Made by a program: the position numbers and the translations under genes. A stretch of 39,550 bases of DNA from Cytophagales bacterium (GTDB lineage: Bacteria; Bacteroidota; Bacteroidia; Cytophagales; Spirosomataceae). Shown piece by piece: positions 3,761-22,804 of this stretch (its first letter is position 1; every line of letters starts with the position of its first letter). The stretch spans positions 1 to 39,550 of the forward strand of contig JBBRNH010000052.1 in the NCBI GenBank assembly GCA_038230415.1, in the 5' to 3' direction. Below the pieces are notes generated by a model. That model saw only the letters and a program-made list of their open reading frames with translations. It searched no databases and was not told the DNA's origin.

Positions 3761-3832
3761 TTTGTCATTCCGACGCAAGGAGGAATCCATCTGCTTGGCA
3801 ACATAGATTCCTCCTTGCGTCGGAATGACAAA
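3761..3832. repeat. perfect 27-bp inverted repeat (tttgtcattccgacgcaaggaggaatc / gattcctccttgcgtcggaatgacaaa) with an 18-nt loop
   Basis: Arms 3761..3787 and 3806..3832 are exact reverse complements. The element lies 24 bp downstream of the rpsA stop and is a REP/terminator-like element. A weaker hairpin plus T-run at about 3710..3750 also lies on the minus strand. Confidence 0.8.
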
Positions 3833-7059: not shown

Positions 7060-7335
7060 AGTCACAGCCTCAAGACCTTCACTTAAAAACCAGTTCCGCC
7101 GGAGCGATGTAAACCCGGCTCGTTATTCACAGAAACGGATTGCTGATTTTTTAGCAAAAAGTATGCCCAACCCACGCCAACGTAGAGAAAGCAGGGGAAA
7201 TGACCCAAAAAAGTGGGTAAACCGAGTAATTCATTAAGCACGACAGGAACAGGGTAATCTTACAGATGAAGCCGCAATATTCGTACCAACACAACGAGAC
7301 GACTCAGATCGAGTCGTCTCGTTGTGTTTTGGAGT
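7060..7335 (+). ncRNA. candidate small RNA (unknown family) ending at a strong intrinsic terminator
   Basis: A TAATTTTG (-7-like) motif lies at 7048..7055. A perfect 18-bp hairpin at 7288..7328 is followed by gttttggagtttt. There is no convincing ORF; the only one is 83 aa, basic and low-complexity, at 6986..7237. I found no tmRNA, RNase P or SRP signatures. Confidence 0.2.
7288..7335 (+). terminator. rho-independent terminator (18-bp perfect stem aacacaacgagacgactc / gagtcgtctcgttgtgtt, loop agatc, then T-rich tail)
   Basis: Direct reading. The T-run is on the plus strand only. Confidence 0.6.
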
Positions 7336-7349
7336 TTTATATCGCTTCA

Positions 7350-7462
7350 TTACCACCCCCAACCCCCTCCTAAAACAGGAGGGGGCTTTCAAAAACCCTT
7401 TGGCTTTTTGCTCCGAAGGCGTAGCCCCCTCCTGTTTTAGGAGGGGGTTGGGGTGGTAGTAA
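7350..7462. repeat. complex ~110-bp palindromic intergenic element (family copy A): C5/G5 hairpins flanking a ccttYgg...ccgaagg core
   Basis: ttaccacccccaaccccctcctaaaacaggagggggc ... gccccctcctgttttaggagggggttggggtggtagtaa. Compare with 13211..13317. Confidence 0.75.
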
Positions 7463-13190: not shown

Positions 13191-13210
13191 TTATTTTTTA
13201 TTTCCTGAAC

Positions 13211-13317
13211 CGTCTCTTTACCCCCAGCCCCCTAAACAGGGGGCTTTTTAAAGCCTTCGGCTTTTGTTATCCCGAAGGTTTAGCCCCCTGCTTAGGGGGT
13301 TGGGGGTAAGGAGACGG
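13211..13317. repeat. complex palindromic intergenic element (family copy B), between convergent stop codons
   Basis: cgtctctttacccccagccccctaaacagggggc..agccttcggcttttg..cccgaagg..agccccctgcttagggggttgggggtaaggagacg. It has the same architecture as 7350..7462 at roughly 70-75% identity. Confidence 0.75.
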
Positions 13318-13334
13318 TTGGTAACTTTAACCAA

Positions 13335-13970: not shown

Positions 13971-14804
13971 ATGATAAAAAATAAATTAGTTAAGCCCTTT
14001 CTCAAATGGGCAGGTGGGAAAAGACAATTAATGGATGAAATTAGAAAATACGTTCCAAAGAACTTCACCACTTATTACGAACCATTTTTAGGTGGAGGTG
14101 CTGTCTTTTTAGAATTACAACCAAAACATTTCGTAGTAAATGACATCAACCCTGAGTTAATTAACGTTTATCAAACGACAAAAAATAATGTCGACCTACT
14201 TATTGCGACGCTCAAAACTTTTAAAAATGAGAGTGATTCTTATTATGAGATAAGAGAATTAGATCGATTTCCACTATTTAACACAATGTCAAACATTGAA
14301 AAAGCCGCAAGAATTATCTATCTAAATAAAACTTGCTTTAATGGATTGTTCAGAGTTAATAGTCAGGGGCAATTTAATGTACCATTTGGTAGTTACAAAA
14401 ATCCTGATATTATCAATGAAATAACATTAAGAGCAGTAAGTCGATACTTAAATGAAAACTCTGGTTCCTTCTTAAACGGAGATTTCGCAGATGCTGTTAA
14501 AGAAGCAAAAAAAGGATGCTTTATTTATCTTGATCCACCTTATGACCCTGTCTCTGATAGTTCTTCCTTCACGGGTTATACTTTAGATGGATTTGGAAAA
14601 AGACAACAAACCCGTCTTAAGGCAGTTTGTGACGATTTGGATAATCGTGGTTGTAAATTCCTTGTTTCTAACTCGTCAACAGATTTCATCAGAGATTTAT
14701 ACAGAGATTATAAGATAGAAAGAGTCCAGGCTACCAGAAGCATAAATTCTGTTGCAGCAGGTCGAGGCAAAGTTGATGAACTTTTAATTAGGAATTATGA
14801 GTAA
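13971..14804 (+). CDS. dam: DNA N6-adenine methyltransferase, Dam/DpnM class (D12 alpha-class; probable GATC specificity)
   Basis: The motifs LKWAGGKRQL, EPFLGGGAVF (FxGxG, AdoMet) and IYLDPPY (DPPY catalytic) are present. C-terminal ...TRSINS...GKVDELLI is as in Dam. The region is AT-rich, about 35% GC. Confidence 0.9.
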   Translation: MIKNKLVKPFLKWAGGKRQLMDEIRKYVPKNFTTYYEPFLGGGAVFLELQPKHFVVNDINPELINVYQTTKNNVDLLIATLKTFKNESDSYYEIRELDRFPLFNTMSNIEKAARIIYLNKTCFNGLFRVNSQGQFNVPFGSYKNPDIINEITLRAVSRYLNENSGSFLNGDFADAVKEAKKGCFIYLDPPYDPVSDSSSFTGYTLDGFGKRQQTRLKAVCDDLDNRGCKFLVSNSSTDFIRDLYRDYKIERVQATRSINSVAAGRGKVDELLIRNYE

Positions 14805-14816
14805 ATATCCAGAAAA

Positions 14817-16100
14817 ATGAAAACTAAAAACGATATTGCTTGGAATATACTCTTCGAAAAATACAGCATACTGCAGGCTATTGAAAATGAAGGAAAATTT
14901 ATAATATCCTCGGCTACCATCAATGTGATTAGAGAAAGTAGATTGATGACTAAGTTCGACAGTTTAGAAACGCTTCCTCACCTCTTTACCAAAAACCACC
15001 TTGCTATTTTACCAATAAGTAGGGGAGATTATATGATCGGAAAATTTGATGCCTACTACAAAGTAAATTCAGATGTTTATATCGAAGACGAATATGTTGC
15101 CTTTCCAGATTATCTCCAAAGTTTAGACTATAAAAAAATATATTCAGAAAGTGCAGCTATAAACTGCGCTTATGTAACGGGTATTTTAGCGCGATTCATG
15201 GACGATACGTCGCTTCTTCCTACCGTATCCGGCAGAATGGGATCTTCAAAATTTGATTTTTCAATAACTGGTAAGGGCGGGACATATAAAATAGCTGTAA
15301 ATAATAGCCAATGTGAAATTGATGGTGGCTATGAAGGTGAACAAGAGTTGCTCCTCATAGAAGCCAAAAATTTCAGTGTGGATGATTTCCTAATTAGGCA
15401 GATATATTATCCATTTCGGCTTTGGTCAAGTAAAATTACTAAGAGAGTAATACCAGTCTTTATGACATATAGTAATGACGGTTTTACATTGAGACAGTTT
15501 CAATTTCAAGATATATCTGATTACAATTCAATTATATTAATAAAGCAAAAGAGATATATTATTGCTGAAGAAGATGATTCAATTATTAAAGACAAAGATT
15601 TGCAACTCACCTTGAGCAATACTCAGGTTGTAGATGAGCAAGAAATTCCTTTCCCGCAAGCAGACAGTTTTAGCCGCGTAATTGATTTATTAAGTTTTCT
15701 TTCCGTATCGGATAAGAAGGATGAGGAGATAACAGAATACTTTGGCTTTGACCCCAGGCAAACTGGATACTACACTAACGCTGGAAAGTACTTAGAGTTA
15801 ATTGAGGGTGATTTTCGCAAGGGTTATCGGCTTACAAATCAAGGTAAGCGGATTGTTTCATTACCATATAAAAAGAAAACAGTTTCACTTGTTAGTTGTA
15901 TTCTCAAACACAAAGTTTTTAATGAAACATTAAAATATTATTTTAAAAATTCTCAACGCCCAGTTGATGATGAAGTAGTAAAATATATGAAAATGTTTGG
16001 TATCTATAACGTTCATGAAGATACCACTTACTACCGTCGTTCTAAAACTGTTCTGAAATGGATTGACTGGATAGTTTCACTTGCAGTTGCGGATGAATAA
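14817..16100 (+). CDS. putative restriction endonuclease / nuclease effector partner of the Dam-like MTase (PD-(D/E)xK-like core plus an uncharacterised C-terminal domain)
   Basis: 427 aa, starting 13 bp after the MTase. Candidate catalytic triad: D169 (CEIDGG), E182 and K184 (ELLLIEAK). It has the same low GC as the MTase. There are no signal or TM segments. Confidence 0.5.
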   Translation: MKTKNDIAWNILFEKYSILQAIENEGKFIISSATINVIRESRLMTKFDSLETLPHLFTKNHLAILPISRGDYMIGKFDAYYKVNSDVYIEDEYVAFPDYLQSLDYKKIYSESAAINCAYVTGILARFMDDTSLLPTVSGRMGSSKFDFSITGKGGTYKIAVNNSQCEIDGGYEGEQELLLIEAKNFSVDDFLIRQIYYPFRLWSSKITKRVIPVFMTYSNDGFTLRQFQFQDISDYNSIILIKQKRYIIAEEDDSIIKDKDLQLTLSNTQVVDEQEIPFPQADSFSRVIDLLSFLSVSDKKDEEITEYFGFDPRQTGYYTNAGKYLELIEGDFRKGYRLTNQGKRIVSLPYKKKTVSLVSCILKHKVFNETLKYYFKNSQRPVDDEVVKYMKMFGIYNVHEDTTYYRRSKTVLKWIDWIVSLAVADE

Positions 16101-16130: not shown

Positions 16131-19100
16131 TTACAATTTCTCCCGCAAAAACTCCGCCGTGTAACTCACGCCGTCGGGCAATTCAATCATGGCTTCGGGC
16201 GTGCCGGTGAAGGTGACGTAGCCGCCTTCGTCACCCCCTTCGCGGCCCAAGTCAATGATGTAGTCAGCGCATTTGATGACCTCTACGTTGTGTTCGATAA
16301 TAATCACCGAATCGCCCTGGTCAACCAGCGCGTTGATGGCTTTGAGCAGCACGCGGATGTCGTGGAAGTGCAGGCCGGTGGTCGGTTCGTCGAAGATAAA
16401 CAGCGTTTGGCCTTTATTTGGGTTGCCTTTGCCAAGGTACGACGCGAGCTTAACCCGTTGTGCCTCACCGCCCGACAGCGTGTTGGCCGATTGCCCCAGC
16501 CCGACGTAGCCCAGGCCGACTTCCTGCAAGGGCAGCAGTTTTTCGGCCATTTTGCGGTCGGCGATGGCGAAGAAATCAATGGCTTCGTCAACGGTCAGGG
16601 CCAGAATGTCGGAGACGTTTTTGCCGCCGAGCGTAACTTCCAGCGTTTCCTGCTTGAAACGTCGGCCCCCGCAGCCCTCGCATTTGAGGTAGATATCGGC
16701 CATAAACTGCATCTCGACTTTTACTTCGCCCTCGCCCTGGCAGATTTCGCAACGGCCACCGTCCACGTTAAACGAGAACTGACTCGGTTTGTAAGCCCTT
16801 GATTTCGAGAGCGGTTGCTCGCTCAGGGCTTGCCGCAGGTAGTCGTAGGCTTTGATGTAGGTAACGGGGTTTGAGCGGCTCGATTTACCAATCGGGTTTT
16901 GGTCAATCATTTCCACCGCAGCCACGCGCCCCACCGACCCGACGAGTTCAGAGAATTTACCGGCTTCTTCGCCGGGATTGCCTTTGAGCCGCGCCAGAGC
17001 CGGATACAGAATCTTTCTGACCAACGTACTCTTGCCCGACCCCGACACGCCGGTGATGACCGTGAGGGTGTTGAGGGGAAACTGCACGTCCACGTTTTTG
17101 AGGTTGTTTTCGTGTGCGCCCGTCACGCCAATCCAGTGCGTGGGTTTGCGCCGGAACGTCGGCACCGGAATCGTTTCGCGGCCCGTCAGAAAATCAAGCG
17201 TATGGCTTTTTAGTGATGAGTTAGACCGGGCTGGCGTTCCGGTGATGAGTGAAGAATATTCTTCTCTTGAGTATTCGTCACTCATCACCGGAACGCCGAC
17301 CTGGTCTAACTCATCATTGATTTTCCCCTGAAATACCAGTTTTCCGCCACCCAAACCGGCTTCGGGACCGATGTCAATGAGTTGGTCGGCGGCCCGCATC
17401 ACGTCTTCTTCGTGTTCAACCACAATCACGGTGTTACCCATGTCACGCAGAGATTCCAGCACACTGACCAACCGTTTGGTGTCTCGCGGATGCAGCCCAA
17501 TGCTCGGTTCATCCAAAATATACATCGAGCCGACAAGGGCCGAACCAAGCGAGGTAGCTAACTTAATTCGTTGATATTCACCACCCGACAGCGAGTTGGT
17601 GAGCCGATTCAGACTCAGATAGCCTAAGCCGACGCGCTCCATGTAGGCCAGCCGGTTGCGGATTTCGATCAGAATCCGGTCGGCGATTTTGCGTTTGTCG
17701 GCGGGCAGGTCAAGCGCATCAAAAAACCGAACCGCCGTTGAAATGGGCATCAGCACGAGGTCAGTGATCGAAACCCCGCCCACTTTCACGTAACCGGCAT
17801 CTTTCCGCAACCGCGAGCCGCGACAATCGGGACAGACGGTTTTGCCCCGATACCGCGACTGCATCACCCGGTATTGTACTTTGAAACTCTGGCTCTCGAC
17901 CCACTCAAAAAAACCGTTCAGGCCCGTAAAGTAGTCGTTGCCCGTCCAGAGAACGCTCTGTTCGGCGGGCGTAAGTTCTTTGTAGGGCCGGTGGATCGGG
18001 AAATCGAACCGGATACCGTTGCGAAGCAGTGGTTTCAGAAATTCGTCGCCCATTTTCTCACTCCGCCAGGGCATGATTGCGCCTTCAAAAACAGACAGGT
18101 TTTTGTCGGGAATCACCAGATCGGGGTCAATGCCGAGAACTTTGCCGAAGCCATCGCACCGGCGGCAGGCTCCGTAGGGGTTGTTGAAGGTAAACAGATT
18201 CACGCCCGGCTCTTCAAAGGTGATACCGTCCAGCTCGAATTTATCCGAGAAAACGCGGTCTTCATTCGGCACGTCGGCCCCGCGCACCAGCACCACCCGG
18301 CAGGTGCCGTTCCCCTCGCTGAAAGCCGTCTGCACCGAGTCAGAAAAGCGGTATTGGGTGTCTTCGTCGGGCTGCCCGGCATAATCGAACTGCACCGTTC
18401 CCCGGTCAATCAGTATTTCAAAAAGGGAGGAGAGGGAGAAAGGGGAAGAAGGAGACAAGGGGGAAGAAGGGAATGATCCAGCCCCTTTCCCCTTCTCCTC
18501 CCTTTTCTCCCTTTTGTCCCCTTCCTCCCCTTTCTCCCTTTCTAATTCTTCTTCAATCTCCCGCACCTCGCCCCCGGCAAGGATGCGGGTATAGCCTTTC
18601 TGAAGCAGGATTTTGAGTTCTACAGCCAGCGTGCGGCCTTCCTGAATCAGCAACGGGGCCAAAATCATGACGCGCTGATTGGCCCGGCTACCGAAAATAT
18701 AATTTACGACATCGGTAACGGTGTCTTTTTTGACAATACCACCCGACACCGGCGAGTACGTCACGCCCACCCGCGCAAAGAGCAGTTTGAGGTAATCATA
18801 AATTTCGGTGCTGGTGCCAACGGTGCTGCGCGGGTTGCGCGTGGAAACTTTCTGCTCGATGGCGATGGCGGGCGAAACACCTTTGATGTATTCGACATCG
18901 GGTTTTTCCATCCGGCCCAGAAACTGCCGGGCGTAGCTGCTCAGGCTCTCGACGTACATCCGCTGACCCTCGGCAAAGAGCGTATCAAACGCCAGCGATG
19001 ACTTTCCCGACCCCGATAAGCCACTGATTACGACTAACTTATTGCGCGGAATGGCAACATCTAAACTTTTGAGATTGTGAACATTAGCCCCCTTGATGAT

Positions 19101-19181
19101 GATATATTCTTTGGGGCTGAGCTGGTCAATTGTGCGAAGCGTTTCGATTTCGGCAGTCTGGTTCATGCAGTAGTTTGGCAA
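16131..19181 (-). CDS. uvrA: excinuclease ABC subunit A (UvrA), with two in-frame palindromic insertions
   Basis: It has two ABC ATPase modules with Walker A GVSGSGKSSL and GVSGSGKSTL. Cys-rich zinc modules CRRCDGFG and CPDCRGSRL are present. At 1016 aa it is about 80 aa longer than usual. Confidence 0.93.
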   Translation of the reverse strand: MPNYCMNQTAEIETLRTIDQLSPKEYIIIKGANVHNLKSLDVAIPRNKLVVISGLSGSGKSSLAFDTLFAEGQRMYVESLSSYARQFLGRMEKPDVEYIKGVSPAIAIEQKVSTRNPRSTVGTSTEIYDYLKLLFARVGVTYSPVSGGIVKKDTVTDVVNYIFGSRANQRVMILAPLLIQEGRTLAVELKILLQKGYTRILAGGEVREIEEELEREKGEEGDKREKREEKGKGAGSFPSSPLSPSSPFSLSSLFEILIDRGTVQFDYAGQPDEDTQYRFSDSVQTAFSEGNGTCRVVLVRGADVPNEDRVFSDKFELDGITFEEPGVNLFTFNNPYGACRRCDGFGKVLGIDPDLVIPDKNLSVFEGAIMPWRSEKMGDEFLKPLLRNGIRFDFPIHRPYKELTPAEQSVLWTGNDYFTGLNGFFEWVESQSFKVQYRVMQSRYRGKTVCPDCRGSRLRKDAGYVKVGGVSITDLVLMPISTAVRFFDALDLPADKRKIADRILIEIRNRLAYMERVGLGYLSLNRLTNSLSGGEYQRIKLATSLGSALVGSMYILDEPSIGLHPRDTKRLVSVLESLRDMGNTVIVVEHEEDVMRAADQLIDIGPEAGLGGGKLVFQGKINDELDQVGVPVMSDEYSREEYSSLITGTPARSNSSLKSHTLDFLTGRETIPVPTFRRKPTHWIGVTGAHENNLKNVDVQFPLNTLTVITGVSGSGKSTLVRKILYPALARLKGNPGEEAGKFSELVGSVGRVAAVEMIDQNPIGKSSRSNPVTYIKAYDYLRQALSEQPLSKSRAYKPSQFSFNVDGGRCEICQGEGEVKVEMQFMADIYLKCEGCGGRRFKQETLEVTLGGKNVSDILALTVDEAIDFFAIADRKMAEKLLPLQEVGLGYVGLGQSANTLSGGEAQRVKLASYLGKGNPNKGQTLFIFDEPTTGLHFHDIRVLLKAINALVDQGDSVIIIEHNVEVIKCADYIIDLGREGGDEGGYVTFTGTPEAMIELPDGVSYTAEFLREKL
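17214..17316. repeat. ~103-bp imperfect palindrome inside the uvrA coding sequence, in frame
   Basis: The right arm differs from the reverse complement of the left arm (tgatgagttagaccgggctggcgttccggtgatgagtgaagaatattc) at only a few positions. It encodes ..DELDQVGVPVMSDEYSREEYSSLITGTP... in UvrA. The opposite strand (ORF 16978..17331) encodes the near-identical DELDRAGVPVMSEEYSSLEYSSLITGTP. Confidence 0.8.
18419..18541. repeat. homopurine/homopyrimidine mirror-palindromic tract inside the uvrA coding sequence, in frame
   Basis: 54 nt are almost all purine (aaaaagggaggagagggagaaaggggaagaagg...). A short centre is followed by about 59 nt almost all pyrimidine, approximately the reverse complement. 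It encodes the low-complexity EIEEELEREKGEEGDKREKREEKGKG-AGS-FPSSPLSPSSPFSLSS. Confidence 0.75.
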
Positions 19182-22720: not shown

Positions 22721-22804
22721 GCGCAAAGACGCAGAGACGCAAAGTCTTTGGGTTGTGTTTTTAAATACCTTAGAAATAGACTTTTGCGCCTTCGCGTCTT
22801 TGCG
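22721..22804. repeat. nested imperfect hairpin (gcgcaaagacgc...gcgtctttgcg, inner acgcaaagtct...agacttttgcg) between the MBOAT stop and the AlgJ-like start
   Basis: Direct reading. It is preceded by the T7 run at 22713..22720. Possible terminator, attenuator or REP-like element. Confidence 0.5.

Follow-up and report, generated by a model that had tools for sequence, protein, structure and literature searches.

A Translated Purine-to-Pyrimidine Inverted Repeat in uvrA of a Cytophagales Bacterium and Its Turnover Among Spirosomaceae

The uvrA Gene and Its In-Frame Hairpins

The stretch of DNA analyzed here, 39.5 kb in length and referred to as the window, carries a uvrA gene on the reverse strand, and the features located within this gene are collected in Table 1. 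The window UvrA matched TIGR00630 with 1007.7 bits (cutoff 729.8), which assigned it to the UvrA equivalog, and when solved structures were ranked the UvrA of T. maritima (3pih) came first with an E-value of 8e-250, with 2r6f at 6e-248. Across the 120 orthologues retrieved, every one of which was full length, UvrA ranged from 959 to 1032 aa, and no frameshifted uvrA allele was seen among them.

Table 1. Positions of uvrA and of the hairpin features within it, in window coordinates.
Feature	Position	Strand	Description
uvrA coding sequence	16131..19166	(-)	ATG at 19166, stop at 16131-16133; 1011 aa; from the open reading frame list and translation
Site-1 variable cassette	18417..18551	(-)	~135 nt, 45 codons; unalignable with the two closest orthologues (L081, L082)
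Site-1 purine arm (coding strand)	18482..18542	(-)	61 nt, 98% purine; encodes EREKGEEGDKREKREEKGKG
Site-1 spacer / apical loop	18474..18481	(-)	8 nt, CTGGATCA on the coding strand; encodes part of AGS; read directly
Site-1 pyrimidine arm (coding strand)	18420..18473	(-)	54 nt, 98% pyrimidine, T5 at its end; encodes FPSSPLSPSSPFSLSSLF
Site-2 coding hairpin	17210..17320	(-)	arms 17214-17261 and 17269-17316; in frame; encodes NDELDQVGVPVMSDEYSREEYSSLITGTPARSNSSL

A purine/pyrimidine (R/Y) tract within uvrA had originally been predicted from the letters of the sequence, and its presence was confirmed by direct reading and by an R/Y scan of the whole window, which returned this single tract (on the plus strand, 18418-18476 purine and 18477-18554 pyrimidine). 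The tract, here called site 1, is in frame in the uvrA reading frame, where it occupies codons ~205-250 of 1011 and gives the product ...EIEEELEREKGEEGDKREKREEKGKGAGSFPSSPLSPSSPFSLSSLFE.... On the coding strand, the purine arm is a degenerate 9-nt tandem array of AGAAAAGGG-like units (TRF: period 9, 6.7 copies, 18482-18541), with an autocorrelation of 0.71 at lag 9, and the pyrimidine arm is a 9-nt periodic array of the complement of AGAAAAGGG (TRF: period 9, 4.2 copies, 18434-18471); runs of G4-5, C5 and T5 are also present. The two arms paired with each other in both RNA and DNA folds, the spacer being unpaired or forming a 2-bp inner stem at most, and the best ungapped pairings between the arms were 47 nt at 79% and 25 nt at 92%.

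The RNA fold of the site-1 tract reached -84 kcal/mol, with z-scores of -3.8 against dinucleotide shuffles and -9.3 against mononucleotide shuffles, and the DNA fold reached -33.6 kcal/mol (z -2.2). When the purine and pyrimidine blocks were shuffled internally, the observed -74.0 kcal/mol compared with -66.1 ± 4.7 kcal/mol (z -1.7, 24 of 500 shuffles as good), indicating that the pairing comes mostly from the layout of a purine block and a pyrimidine block and less from exact complementarity of the arms. Mirror symmetry did not exceed chance within either arm, with a best score of 7 in the purine arm (9.1 ± 1.8 in shuffles) and 10 in the pyrimidine arm (8.5 ± 1.7 in shuffles). The tract is a hairpin-forming inverted repeat with reverse-complement arms, not a mirror repeat, and the mirror palindrome with H-DNA potential that had been proposed for it was not upheld.

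On the sense strand, the site-1 hairpin (-74 to -88 kcal/mol across folds) is followed directly by TTTTT, the hairpin and T/U-tract arrangement of an intrinsic terminator; in position it departs from one, as it lies inside an open reading frame and not downstream of a stop codon. A consensus terminator scanner flagged neither uvrA hairpin, and its failure to report the site-1 hairpin is explained by its accepting loops of 3-8 nt alone, the apical loop being longer. Searching both strands against Rfam 15 gave no family at the gathering threshold, and the sub-threshold matches, eukaryotic miRNA precursors only, reflect a generic hairpin likeness, so that a known RNA family is rejected.

Site 1 had been described as a second insertion in uvrA, and there is indeed another in-frame hairpin in the gene (site 2). 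Its arms of 48 nt are 90% complementary and its fold is -75.9 kcal/mol (z -13.6); it lies in the segment that links the two ABC halves of UvrA, and the insert is missing from non-Spirosomaceae UvrA. Compared with solved UvrAs, the site-1 insert adds ~40 aa, which fall between the counterparts of 2r6f residues 216 and ~234; this agrees with the earlier view that the tract is inserted in frame and has no equivalent in canonical UvrA. The cassette is inside the UvrA_inter (UvrB-interaction) domain, Pfam PF17760; the match to this profile in the window UvrA ends at residue 212 (profile position 65), and a short-loop orthologue is covered over positions 2-107. In the AlphaFold2 model, both inserts appear as low-confidence loops between confident strands: at site 1 a helix at 204-222 leads into residues 220-246 with pLDDT <50, with flanks of 85-90, and at site 2 pLDDT is <50 at residues 624-651. 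The loop encoded at site 1, non-conserved and of low complexity, is accordingly predicted to begin as a helical, E/K-rich extension and to continue as a disordered segment rich in S and P. Orthologues L001-L003 and L028 have short loops without a hairpin (z about 0), and the cassette is therefore dispensable. A phmmer search with the 50-aa insert against 1.84 billion protein representatives returned 2 matches, both in proteins of >2200 aa; neither resembles a conserved family of small inserts, and judged by these matches a conserved peptide module is rejected. When the site-2 peptide was searched through a word index, zero candidates were returned, the index probably being unsuited to a 40-aa query.

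Turnover and Recurrence in Related Genomes

Both uvrA sites were highly variable in length and sequence among the 120 orthologues. The two closest proteins are 93.8% (L081) and 91.0% (L082) identical to the window UvrA, and in the DNA alignment with these genomes the flanks of site 1 were ~90% identical and the interval between ~18551 and ~18417 was unalignable, with sharp edges. The idea of a hyper-mutable site was thus supported, and the ortholog alignment did not reveal the conserved, fixed linker that had been named as its alternative. At site 1, one of the two relatives carries a different hairpin and the other a one-armed repeat remnant, and the repeat units are unrelated across the three closest relatives (a 9-mer R/Y unit, AGTCAAA and CCAGCCA). 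Between L084 and L091 (94.6%), the 5' arm is still common and indels are found in the loop and the 3' arm, a pattern that would be expected for divergence in place. TTGAA is present on both sides of the window cassette, but its right-hand copy is missing in L081 and L082, so that the cassette edges have no consistent direct repeat that could be taken as a target-site duplication. At the protein level, an IE...LE motif is conserved.

E/K-then-S/P peptides recur at site 1 in several genera. The covariation term was +1.12, obtained from four Larkinella R/Y cassettes only, with low-complexity arms. Metagenome scans with flank patterns (an exact 26-mer and a degenerate pattern) gave no match. An assembly artefact was ruled out by the intact open reading frame and by analogous cassettes in the isolate genomes of Larkinella rosea, L. 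punicea, Fibrella aestuarina and F. arboris.

At site 2, hairpins are present in the window, L081 and L082 alike. The outer stem AGTGA/TCACT is common to the site, and the heptamer is species-specific, with the same variant in both arms: GTGATGA in the window and L089, GTGACCA in L081, and GTGAAGA in L082, L085 and L092. From a comparison of the arms, this pattern may be read as concerted evolution.

In Larkinella, in Fibrella and in Spirosoma-like genomes, purine-then-pyrimidine (R-to-Y) hairpins recur at one or other uvrA site. Over 1.9 Mb, 12 paired R/Y tracts were counted, all in the R-to-Y order (12/12, with 0/12 Y-to-R), and Spirosomaceae held 11 of the 12, 9 at uvrA site 1 or 2 and 2 intergenic (L002 and L087). 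Outside uvrA, R-to-Y hairpins were also located directly after stop codons, between genes, that of L002 being an A4-hairpin-T5 arrangement at a gene end. Three Fibrella species carry three unrelated near-perfect hairpins (about 43-58 bp) immediately 3' of an orthologous DJ-1/PfpI stop codon, one of them R-to-Y. Long hairpins with short-tandem-repeat arms are a class typical of Spirosomaceae genomes, to which the uvrA cassette belongs, and they are normally found just after stop codons, terminator-like and often between convergent genes, where they may act as terminators. In the window itself, hairpins at 7354-7456 and 13208-13319 are related to each other and resemble a palindrome at uvrA site 1 of a Cyclobacteriaceae MAG.

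Within coding sequence, such hairpins are rare. In 304 kb of Spirosomaceae loci, clear long hairpins within genuine coding sequence were confined to uvrA, the only other coding candidate being a weak 15-of-17 stem in L087; the comparison covered ~25 flanking genes in the window and about 250 genes across 16 related loci. A total of 88 hairpins was found in 1.52 Mb from 80 Bacteroidota loci, 2 of them in long open reading frames, one of these being the uvrA of a Hymenobacter. To our knowledge, long inverted repeats are normally kept out of bacterial coding sequences. Since long hairpins are essentially absent from the roughly 250 other genes examined, two positions in an essential repair gene that stay occupied by fast-changing long hairpins throughout a bacterial family are unusual.

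The loci taken for DNA analysis were partly picked for palindromic-looking peptides, so the hairpin prevalence in this sample is biased; none of the four unbiased Spirosomaceae loci among the matches listed in the genome scan had a hairpin (0/4). The outgroups were matches listed in the genome-contig scan, mostly non-Spirosomaceae Bacteroidota. A palindrome test on peptides only placed at least 26/120 orthologues at site 2 and at least 7/120 at site 1 above the shuffled 99th percentile, these figures being lower bounds because mismatches break the perfect run and power is low. In only 6 of 20 uvrA hairpins did the sense strand give a more stable fold than the antisense strand; this lack of a sense-strand bias argues against a selected mRNA structure.

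Proposed Renewal in Place and Alternative Explanations

The explanation that we favor, giving it roughly an even chance, is that the site-1 tract is a tolerated and self-renewing coding palindrome at the DNA level, remade in place by slippage and by template switching from arm to arm. The cassette would lie in an insertion-tolerant surface loop and be translated straight through, and UvrA would tolerate the loop without needing it; the cassette itself may be neutral. A repeat-armed hairpin would occupy a spot in uvrA at which selection fails to purge it, replication slippage would alter the number and type of its repeat units, and template switching between the arms would transfer changes from one arm to the other. 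Slippage and template switching at a tolerated spot would keep the position constant and the hairpin in existence, the sequence being overwritten while UvrA diverges by 6-9%, and uvrA would hold two fixed hairpin "nests," at site 1 and at site 2. In two reports, template switching between inverted-repeat arms is described as homogenizing the arms and as able to create or maintain hairpins, coding DNA included (PMC8604942; PMC5941160). Because the complementarity of the window arms is only marginally above that of random R/Y blocks, arm-to-arm copying in the window tract itself is putative, a point against renewal in place. The unrelated site-1 units of the three closest relatives look more like replacement than gradual change, which would also count against it, and the richness of uvrA in cassettes relative to about 250 neighboring genes is unaccounted for by it.

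Another explanation, possible but rather doubtful in our judgment, is that the R-to-Y cassette represents one copy of a palindromic element, non-autonomous and resembling a terminator (MITE, REP, RPE or SPRITE-like), the cassettes of relatives being independent insertions or replacements in hairpin-containing or permissive targets. Compositionally similar R-to-Y hairpins at non-orthologous places (uvrA sites 1 and 2, intergenic in L002 and L087), an orientation that is R-to-Y without exception, sharp cassette edges with wholesale replacement between orthologues of 91-94% identity, and within-genome families of other hairpins such as the related pair in the window are all consistent with mobility, as are a Y1 transposase gene 7 kb from uvrA in L089 and the precedents of Rickettsia RPE in-frame palindromic insertions and pneumococcal SPRITE mobile hairpins (PMC10969869). 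However, the likeness among R-to-Y copies is one of low complexity only, neither a target-site duplication nor distinct terminal repeats were found at the cassette, which is a palindrome over its whole length, the window has just one R/Y tract, and the two phmmer matches were both to very large proteins. Moreover, the species-specific heptamers in both arms of site 2 favor concerted evolution in place, and strong target specificity would be needed for the same two loops to be struck independently in many genera. The MITE-like family suggested in the original prediction therefore survives weakly: similar R-to-Y hairpins do exist elsewhere in related genomes, but no target-site duplication, no second copy in the window and no clear peptide family were found.

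It is also conceivable, although we consider it unlikely, that an undescribed process of hairpin generation or hairpin homing has uvrA as its preferred host, in Spirosomaceae and sporadically in further Cytophagales. Fixed positions in this essential repair gene (two, and three in one Hymenobacter genome) would then be re-seeded again and again with long, repeat-armed palindromes of a type met elsewhere at gene ends only. If this were true, the enrichment in uvrA would be biologically meaningful; one option would be a new mobile terminator-like hairpin class targeting uvrA sites, and the other a contingency device, with nucleotide excision repair, and through it the mutation rate, being adjusted by slippage of 7-nt units or by instability of the palindrome.

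That the hairpin and its U5 tract are kept as a regulatory RNA or terminator attenuating or pausing uvrA expression, whether through translation-dependent intrinsic termination, ribosomes pausing where two domains meet or an RNase III site, seems quite improbable. The strong hairpin with TTTTT right behind it on the sense strand, the resemblance of the gene-end R-to-Y hairpins to bidirectional terminators (such as that of L002), the retention of a hairpin at fixed positions despite sequence change, as if structure mattered, and the location of site 2 at the boundary between the two ABC halves would fit such a role. Against it, hairpins are missing from both sites in many orthologues, among them those of Fibrella musci, Spirosoma sp. 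48-14, Fibrisoma and Nibrella, the sense fold is not favored over the antisense fold, the U-tract is not general, being missing from site 1 of L084-L086 and from every site-2 cassette, the four Larkinella cassettes gave no support from covariation, and no Rfam family was matched.

We regard as very improbable that the tract forms an intramolecular triplex (H-DNA) or slipped DNA and so acts as a hazard or contingency locus, a spot whose fragility or phase variation would turn uvrA, and with it the mutation rate, on and off. Its arms are homopurine and homopyrimidine to ~98% over 54-61 nt each, with tandem 9-nt units and homopolymer runs, and related uvrA cassettes have 7-nt units whose slippage would shift the frame. 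However, H-DNA by definition requires mirror symmetry, which is at chance level in both arms, slippage by the 9-nt unit preserves the frame, and 120/120 orthologues are full length with no frameshifted alleles seen. Equally hard to credit is a functional protein linker, with the E/K helix and S/P segment acting in the UvrB-binding domain as a spacer of adaptive value or as a module for interactions: the helical extension modeled over the E/K part and the recurrence of E/K-then-S/P peptides in several genera would agree with it, but neither sequence nor length is conserved even at 91-94% identity, the recurrence is a trivial result of translating R-to-Y DNA, the same type of DNA is also found at non-coding positions, and the search of 1.84 billion proteins gave just the 2 matches to proteins of >2200 aa.

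The uvrA nests could serve as a natural system for the birth, homogenization and replacement of palindromes. They bear on the insertion tolerance of the UvrB-binding domain and of the inter-ABC linker, and on the read-through of terminator-like hairpins inside genes. Furthermore, the cassettes inflate the length of UvrA and make spurious low-complexity "domains," which may mislead alignment, phylogeny and MAG quality checks.

Comparison With Known Palindromic Systems

RPEs are palindromic DNA of about 100-150 bp, placed in frame in housekeeping genes, translated and tolerated by the fold (PMC10969869). The uvrA cassette is alike in being an in-frame palindrome in a conserved housekeeping gene, translated and found at a tolerated position, a loop with pLDDT <50 flanked by confident strands. 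In contrast, RPEs form sequence families with a conserved peptide across genes and many copies per genome, whereas the uvrA cassette is of low complexity, is present as one copy in the window and differs in its peptide between close orthologues; uvrA is also the only clear host among the ~25 window genes and about 250 genes of the 16 related loci. REP/RAYT palindromes carry a GTAG or CGTC tetranucleotide at the foot of a G+C-rich stem of just 20-40 bp (PMC3733652), and at the cassette ends neither tag was found, the arms being R/Y arrays of 54-61 nt.

Pneumococcal SPRITEs are modules of a hairpin and a T-tract dispersed at gene ends (PMC10969869). The intergenic R-to-Y hairpins of L002 and L087 have the look of a SPRITE, and the window tract ends in T5; however, SPRITE copies are recognizably homologous and intergenic, whereas the window copy is within coding sequence and the Spirosomaceae hairpins are putatively mobile at most. 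Mitochondrial genes of Nematomorpha contain long inverted repeats in functional coding genes, with both arms translated (PMC6649704). Those repeats are perfect and lie in conserved protein regions under amino-acid selection, whereas the uvrA arms are imperfect and their loop is non-conserved and predicted to be disordered.

In template-switch (quasi-palindrome) mutagenesis, the homogenization of arms matches the species-specific variants of site 2, but the described cases are short repeats and small clusters of mutations. We know of no description of tandem-repeat arms of 50-60 nt turning over wholesale. Cyanobacterial STRR heptamers are dispersed, mostly intergenic tandem repeats of 7 nt, which can pair with complementary arrays into hairpins. 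The heptamer arms GTGAAGA, AGTCAAA and GTTGTCA are similar to them in style, although STRRs belong to another phylum, the window tract has a 9-nt purine unit, and we are aware of no report of an STRR in frame in uvrA.

The purine/pyrimidine insertion in uvrA

The window comprises one contig of an NCBI assembly in full. Its uvrA product, whose nearest protein relatives were from Fibrella, Spirosoma and Larkinella and so place the organism in the Spirosomaceae (Cytophagales), carries in its UvrB-interaction domain (site 1) an insertion encoded by a purine arm followed by a pyrimidine arm (R->Y), and a scan for such tracts showed it to be alone of its kind in 39.5 kb. Its in-frame translation is EREKGEEGDKREKREEKGKG-AGS-FPSSPLSPSSPFSLSSLF. 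Alignment to solved UvrAs stopped after the equivalent of residue 216 of 2r6f and restarted about 16 residues on, where the window protein has 55 residues; the net insert is thus about 40 aa with the reading frame kept, and the in-frame insertion of the original prediction was confirmed. The Pfam UvrA_inter match (UvrB-interaction domain) ended at residue 212 (profile position 65), and in a short-loop orthologue it was unbroken over profile positions 2-107. In an AlphaFold2 model, whose mean pLDDT of only 63 restricts it to local reading, the E/K-rich part was a predicted helix (204-222), residues 220-246 had pLDDT <50 and the flanking strands 85-90.

Each arm consists of degenerate tandem copies of a 9-nt unit (TRF period 9, 6.7 and 4.2 copies), with the highest autocorrelation at lag 9. 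The arms are mutually reverse complementary, and such an inverted repeat is capable of folding into a hairpin or cruciform. The RNA fold was -84 kcal/mol (z of -3.8 against dinucleotide and -9.3 against mononucleotide shuffles) and the DNA fold -33.6 kcal/mol (z of -2.2). When the purine and pyrimidine blocks were shuffled internally, the fold was -74.0 compared with -66.1 +/- 4.7, and 24 of 500 shuffles were equally good. The real fold barely beats such shuffles; therefore, the key feature is a purine block followed by a pyrimidine block, not exact complementarity. The tract had been described as a mirror palindrome prone to H-DNA. H-DNA needs mirror symmetry within an arm, and in neither arm did this symmetry rise above that of shuffled arms, so both descriptions were abandoned.

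Coordinates of uvrA, its palindromic tracts and related features (positions in the window unless a locus, L, from a related genome is named)
Feature	Position	Strand	Details
uvrA ORF, 1011 codons	16131-19166	-	TIGR00630 1007.7 bits; T. maritima and B. stearothermophilus UvrA E about 1e-248
Site-1 purine arm, 61 nt	18542-18482	coding (-)	98% purine
Site-1 spacer, 8 nt	18481-18474	coding (-)	direct sequence reading
Site-1 pyrimidine arm, 54 nt	18473-18420	coding (-)	98% pyrimidine; T5 at its end
Site-2 in-frame hairpin	17210-17320	-	48-nt arms, 90% complementary; fold z -13.6; not low-complexity
Intergenic hairpins	3761-3832, 7288-7328, 7354-7456, 13208-13319, 22722-22804		stems 18-38 bp; start 10-25 nt past stop codon
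Low-G+C island	13971-16100		34% G+C in a ~55% G+C contig
Post-DJ-1/PfpI hairpins, three Fibrella species	L001 16934-17059; L087 14170-14327; L088 17017-17156		-122 to -148 kcal/mol
Hymenobacter saemangeumensis uvrA in-frame hairpin	L033 967-1036		GTTGTCA/GTTGCCA heptamer arms; third uvrA loop, before FSDKFELDG
Cyclobacteriaceae MAG site-1 palindromes	L015 6803-6949; L011 10571-10699; L018 10571-10711		e.g. CCCCTCTCC-TTGG-GAGAGGGG with GGGGGTGAGG
Y1 transposase gene	L089 2560-2886		IS200/RAYT-type, PF01797

Sequence turnover at two uvrA sites

A second in-frame hairpin lies in the linker joining the two ABC halves (site 2), where disorder is predicted too. The window UvrA is 93.8% and 91.0% identical (gapped columns left out) to the closest orthologues, L081 and L082, respectively. 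Despite DNA flanks that are about 90% identical, alignability with both was lost over about 18551-18417 (site 1) and about 17321-17211 (site 2). At site 1, the window has the 9-mer R/Y hairpin, L082 an AGTCAAA-heptamer hairpin and L081 a one-armed CCAGCCA array. At site 2, an outer AGTGA/TCACT stem is common and both arms carry the species' own heptamer (GTGATGA, GTGACCA or GTGAAGA), a case of repeats evolving in concert, both inside each arm and from arm to arm. Two Larkinella loci, L084 and L091 (94.6% identical), have the 5' purine arm in common, with indels in the loop and 3' arm; site 2 in this genus holds an R/Y hairpin in L084/L091 and a heptamer hairpin in the sister pair L085/L092. 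Among 120 aligned UvrA orthologues (74-88% full-length identity), both sites were hypervariable in length and sequence, with almost invariant flanks. Hypervariability, as originally proposed, was thereby upheld, and the turnover among close relatives clearly speaks against a conserved, fixed linker.

Many orthologue loop peptides resemble translated palindromes, E/K/G-rich and then S/P/L-rich (NEELRVKSEE...SSLFTLNSS; SDELLVMSDE...SSLITNNSSL). DNA was compared for 16 Spirosomaceae loci, a biased sample since protein-fetched loci were partly picked for suggestive peptides. Site 1 carried a hairpin of z -3.6 or below in the window and in L082-L086, and site 2 did so in the window and in L081, L082, L084, L085 and L087-L090; L091 and L092 folded at both sites, and short-loop orthologues (Fibrella musci, Spirosoma sp. 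48-14, Fibrisoma, Nibrella, Dyadobacter) had no hairpin. In an unbiased peptide-only test of all 120 orthologues, the longest perfect palindrome encodable by the loop peptide was compared with shuffled loops, and 26 (site 2) and 7 (site 1) of the 120 exceeded the shuffled 99th percentile, with about 1 expected. These counts are a lower bound because mismatches interrupt a perfect run.

Other palindromes were observed in these genes. The site-2 3' arm (SSLITGTPxR) is common to the window and a distant orthologue, L083, whose 5' arm has decayed. At site 1, the proteins P0059 and P0049 have APEGALLAP-like peptides that a perfect palindrome of as much as 38 nt could encode, an apparent further type that suggests still other elements at this site. 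Site 1 of Cyclobacteriaceae MAGs carries a different, short palindrome type, CCCCTCTCC...GGAGAGGGG, which looks like the family of intergenic hairpins in the window. In L003, L089 and L090, some 25 codons upstream of site 1, an 8-aa insert, GGPTGRQV, is encoded by the short palindrome CCGACGGGTCGG; the insert is also found in many Spirosoma UvrA of the 120-orthologue alignment, and longer nested forms of the palindrome (GGRNAASPTGRQV, GDQNVPAGNRASPTGPQV) in other species. In the Spirosoma-like genome L089, whose site 2 has a 33-bp perfect hairpin, a distance of 7 kb separates uvrA from the Y1 transposase gene upstream.

Coding hairpins and their gene-end relatives

The concentration of coding hairpins in uvrA is the most intriguing aspect of these results. 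In 304 kb of Spirosomaceae loci, every clear long hairpin within genuine coding sequence was in uvrA, the sole other coding candidate being an ORF of L087 with a weak stem (15 of 17). Of 88 long hairpins in the uvrA surroundings of 80 Bacteroidota genomes (1.52 Mb), only 2 fell in long ORFs, one weak and AT-rich and the other in uvrA of H. saemangeumensis; apart from the latter, which encodes VVRCQLPVVSSDKSLTTDNEQLTTN, the 80 loci had no clear coding hairpin. These counts place the per-gene background, in loci around uvrA, at most at about 1 in 250, whereas, counting site 2 alone, 20% or more of the uvrA genes of Spirosomaceae carry a coding palindrome.

Paired R/Y tracts numbered 12 in 1.9 Mb of fetched DNA, all purine-first and none pyrimidine-first. 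Eleven were in Spirosomaceae, nine of them in uvrA (site 1 or 2) and two intergenic, both beginning directly after stop codons. The intergenic hairpin of L002 reads A4, a 39-bp perfect stem and T5, and in Fibrella arboris (L087) 65-nt R->Y arms occupy the gap between convergent genes. Whichever strand is read, a purine-first hairpin ends in a 3' arm rich in pyrimidine/T, as a bidirectional intrinsic terminator does. Long hairpins with short-tandem-repeat arms (about 55 in the 304 kb) lay nearly always just 3' of genes, in agreement with inverted repeats being generally enriched downstream of stop codons in bacteria (PMC13155455). The three Fibrella hairpins directly after the orthologous DJ-1/PfpI stop are near-perfect (about 43-58 bp, one R->Y with 65-nt arms) and unrelated; therefore, gene-end hairpins act like the uvrA sites, with position kept and sequence replaced.

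In the window, hairpin 13208-13319 takes up the space separating the penicillin-amidase gene from the thioredoxin gene, which are convergent; it is related to hairpin 7354-7456 (CACCCCC..CCCCCTCC..GGAGGGGG..GGGGGTG), and both have nested palindromes. Between the thioredoxin gene and uvrA, the low-G+C island holds genes for an N6-adenine DNA methyltransferase of the D12 class (Dam-like) and for a DUF6996/DUF6997/DUF7226 protein and is probably an acquired restriction-modification island; in L081 and L082 the thioredoxin gene directly follows uvrA, without the island.

Proposed origin and known systems

The most economical reading, in which we place about even confidence, is that of a palindromic cassette acting at the level of DNA, which a disordered surface loop of UvrA tolerates and which is translated as a passenger. 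Slippage of short repeat units, together with template switching between the arms, would keep remaking it in place; template switching is described in the literature as homogenising inverted-repeat arms (PMC8604942, PMC5941160). The main rival, possible though doubtful, is a mobile terminator-like hairpin element of RPE or SPRITE type (PMC10969869). Such an element is favored by R->Y hairpins at non-orthologous places and by abrupt site-1 replacements between relatives, but there were no target-site duplications, no conserved peptides and, in the DNA examined, no close copies.

A regulatory terminator or pause is unlikely. The window tract does resemble a hairpin with U5 on the sense strand, a U-tract absent from other uvrA cassettes. 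Under mRNA-level selection, G-U pairs should favor the sense strand, and the sense fold was more stable in only 6 of 20 uvrA hairpins. An Rfam search of the tract gave only generic sub-threshold hairpin matches, and covariation in four Larkinella sequences was uninformative (n=4). A triplex or contingency locus is highly improbable for arms with mirror symmetry at the shuffled level, and an adaptive linker equally so for an insert peptide with no evident relatives among 1.84 billion protein representatives, the two matches being to proteins of over 2200 aa. The existence of hairpin-free orthologues shows the cassettes to be dispensable.

Our literature search found no description of similar repeat-armed purine/pyrimidine or heptamer hairpins, of hairpins at fixed uvrA positions across a bacterial family, of wholesale sequence turnover of this kind, or of matching gene-end relatives. 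In-frame palindromic insertions are already known from the RPEs of Rickettsia, and coding palindromes from the mitochondria of Nematomorpha (PMC6649704); the uvrA cassette resembles both in these respects.
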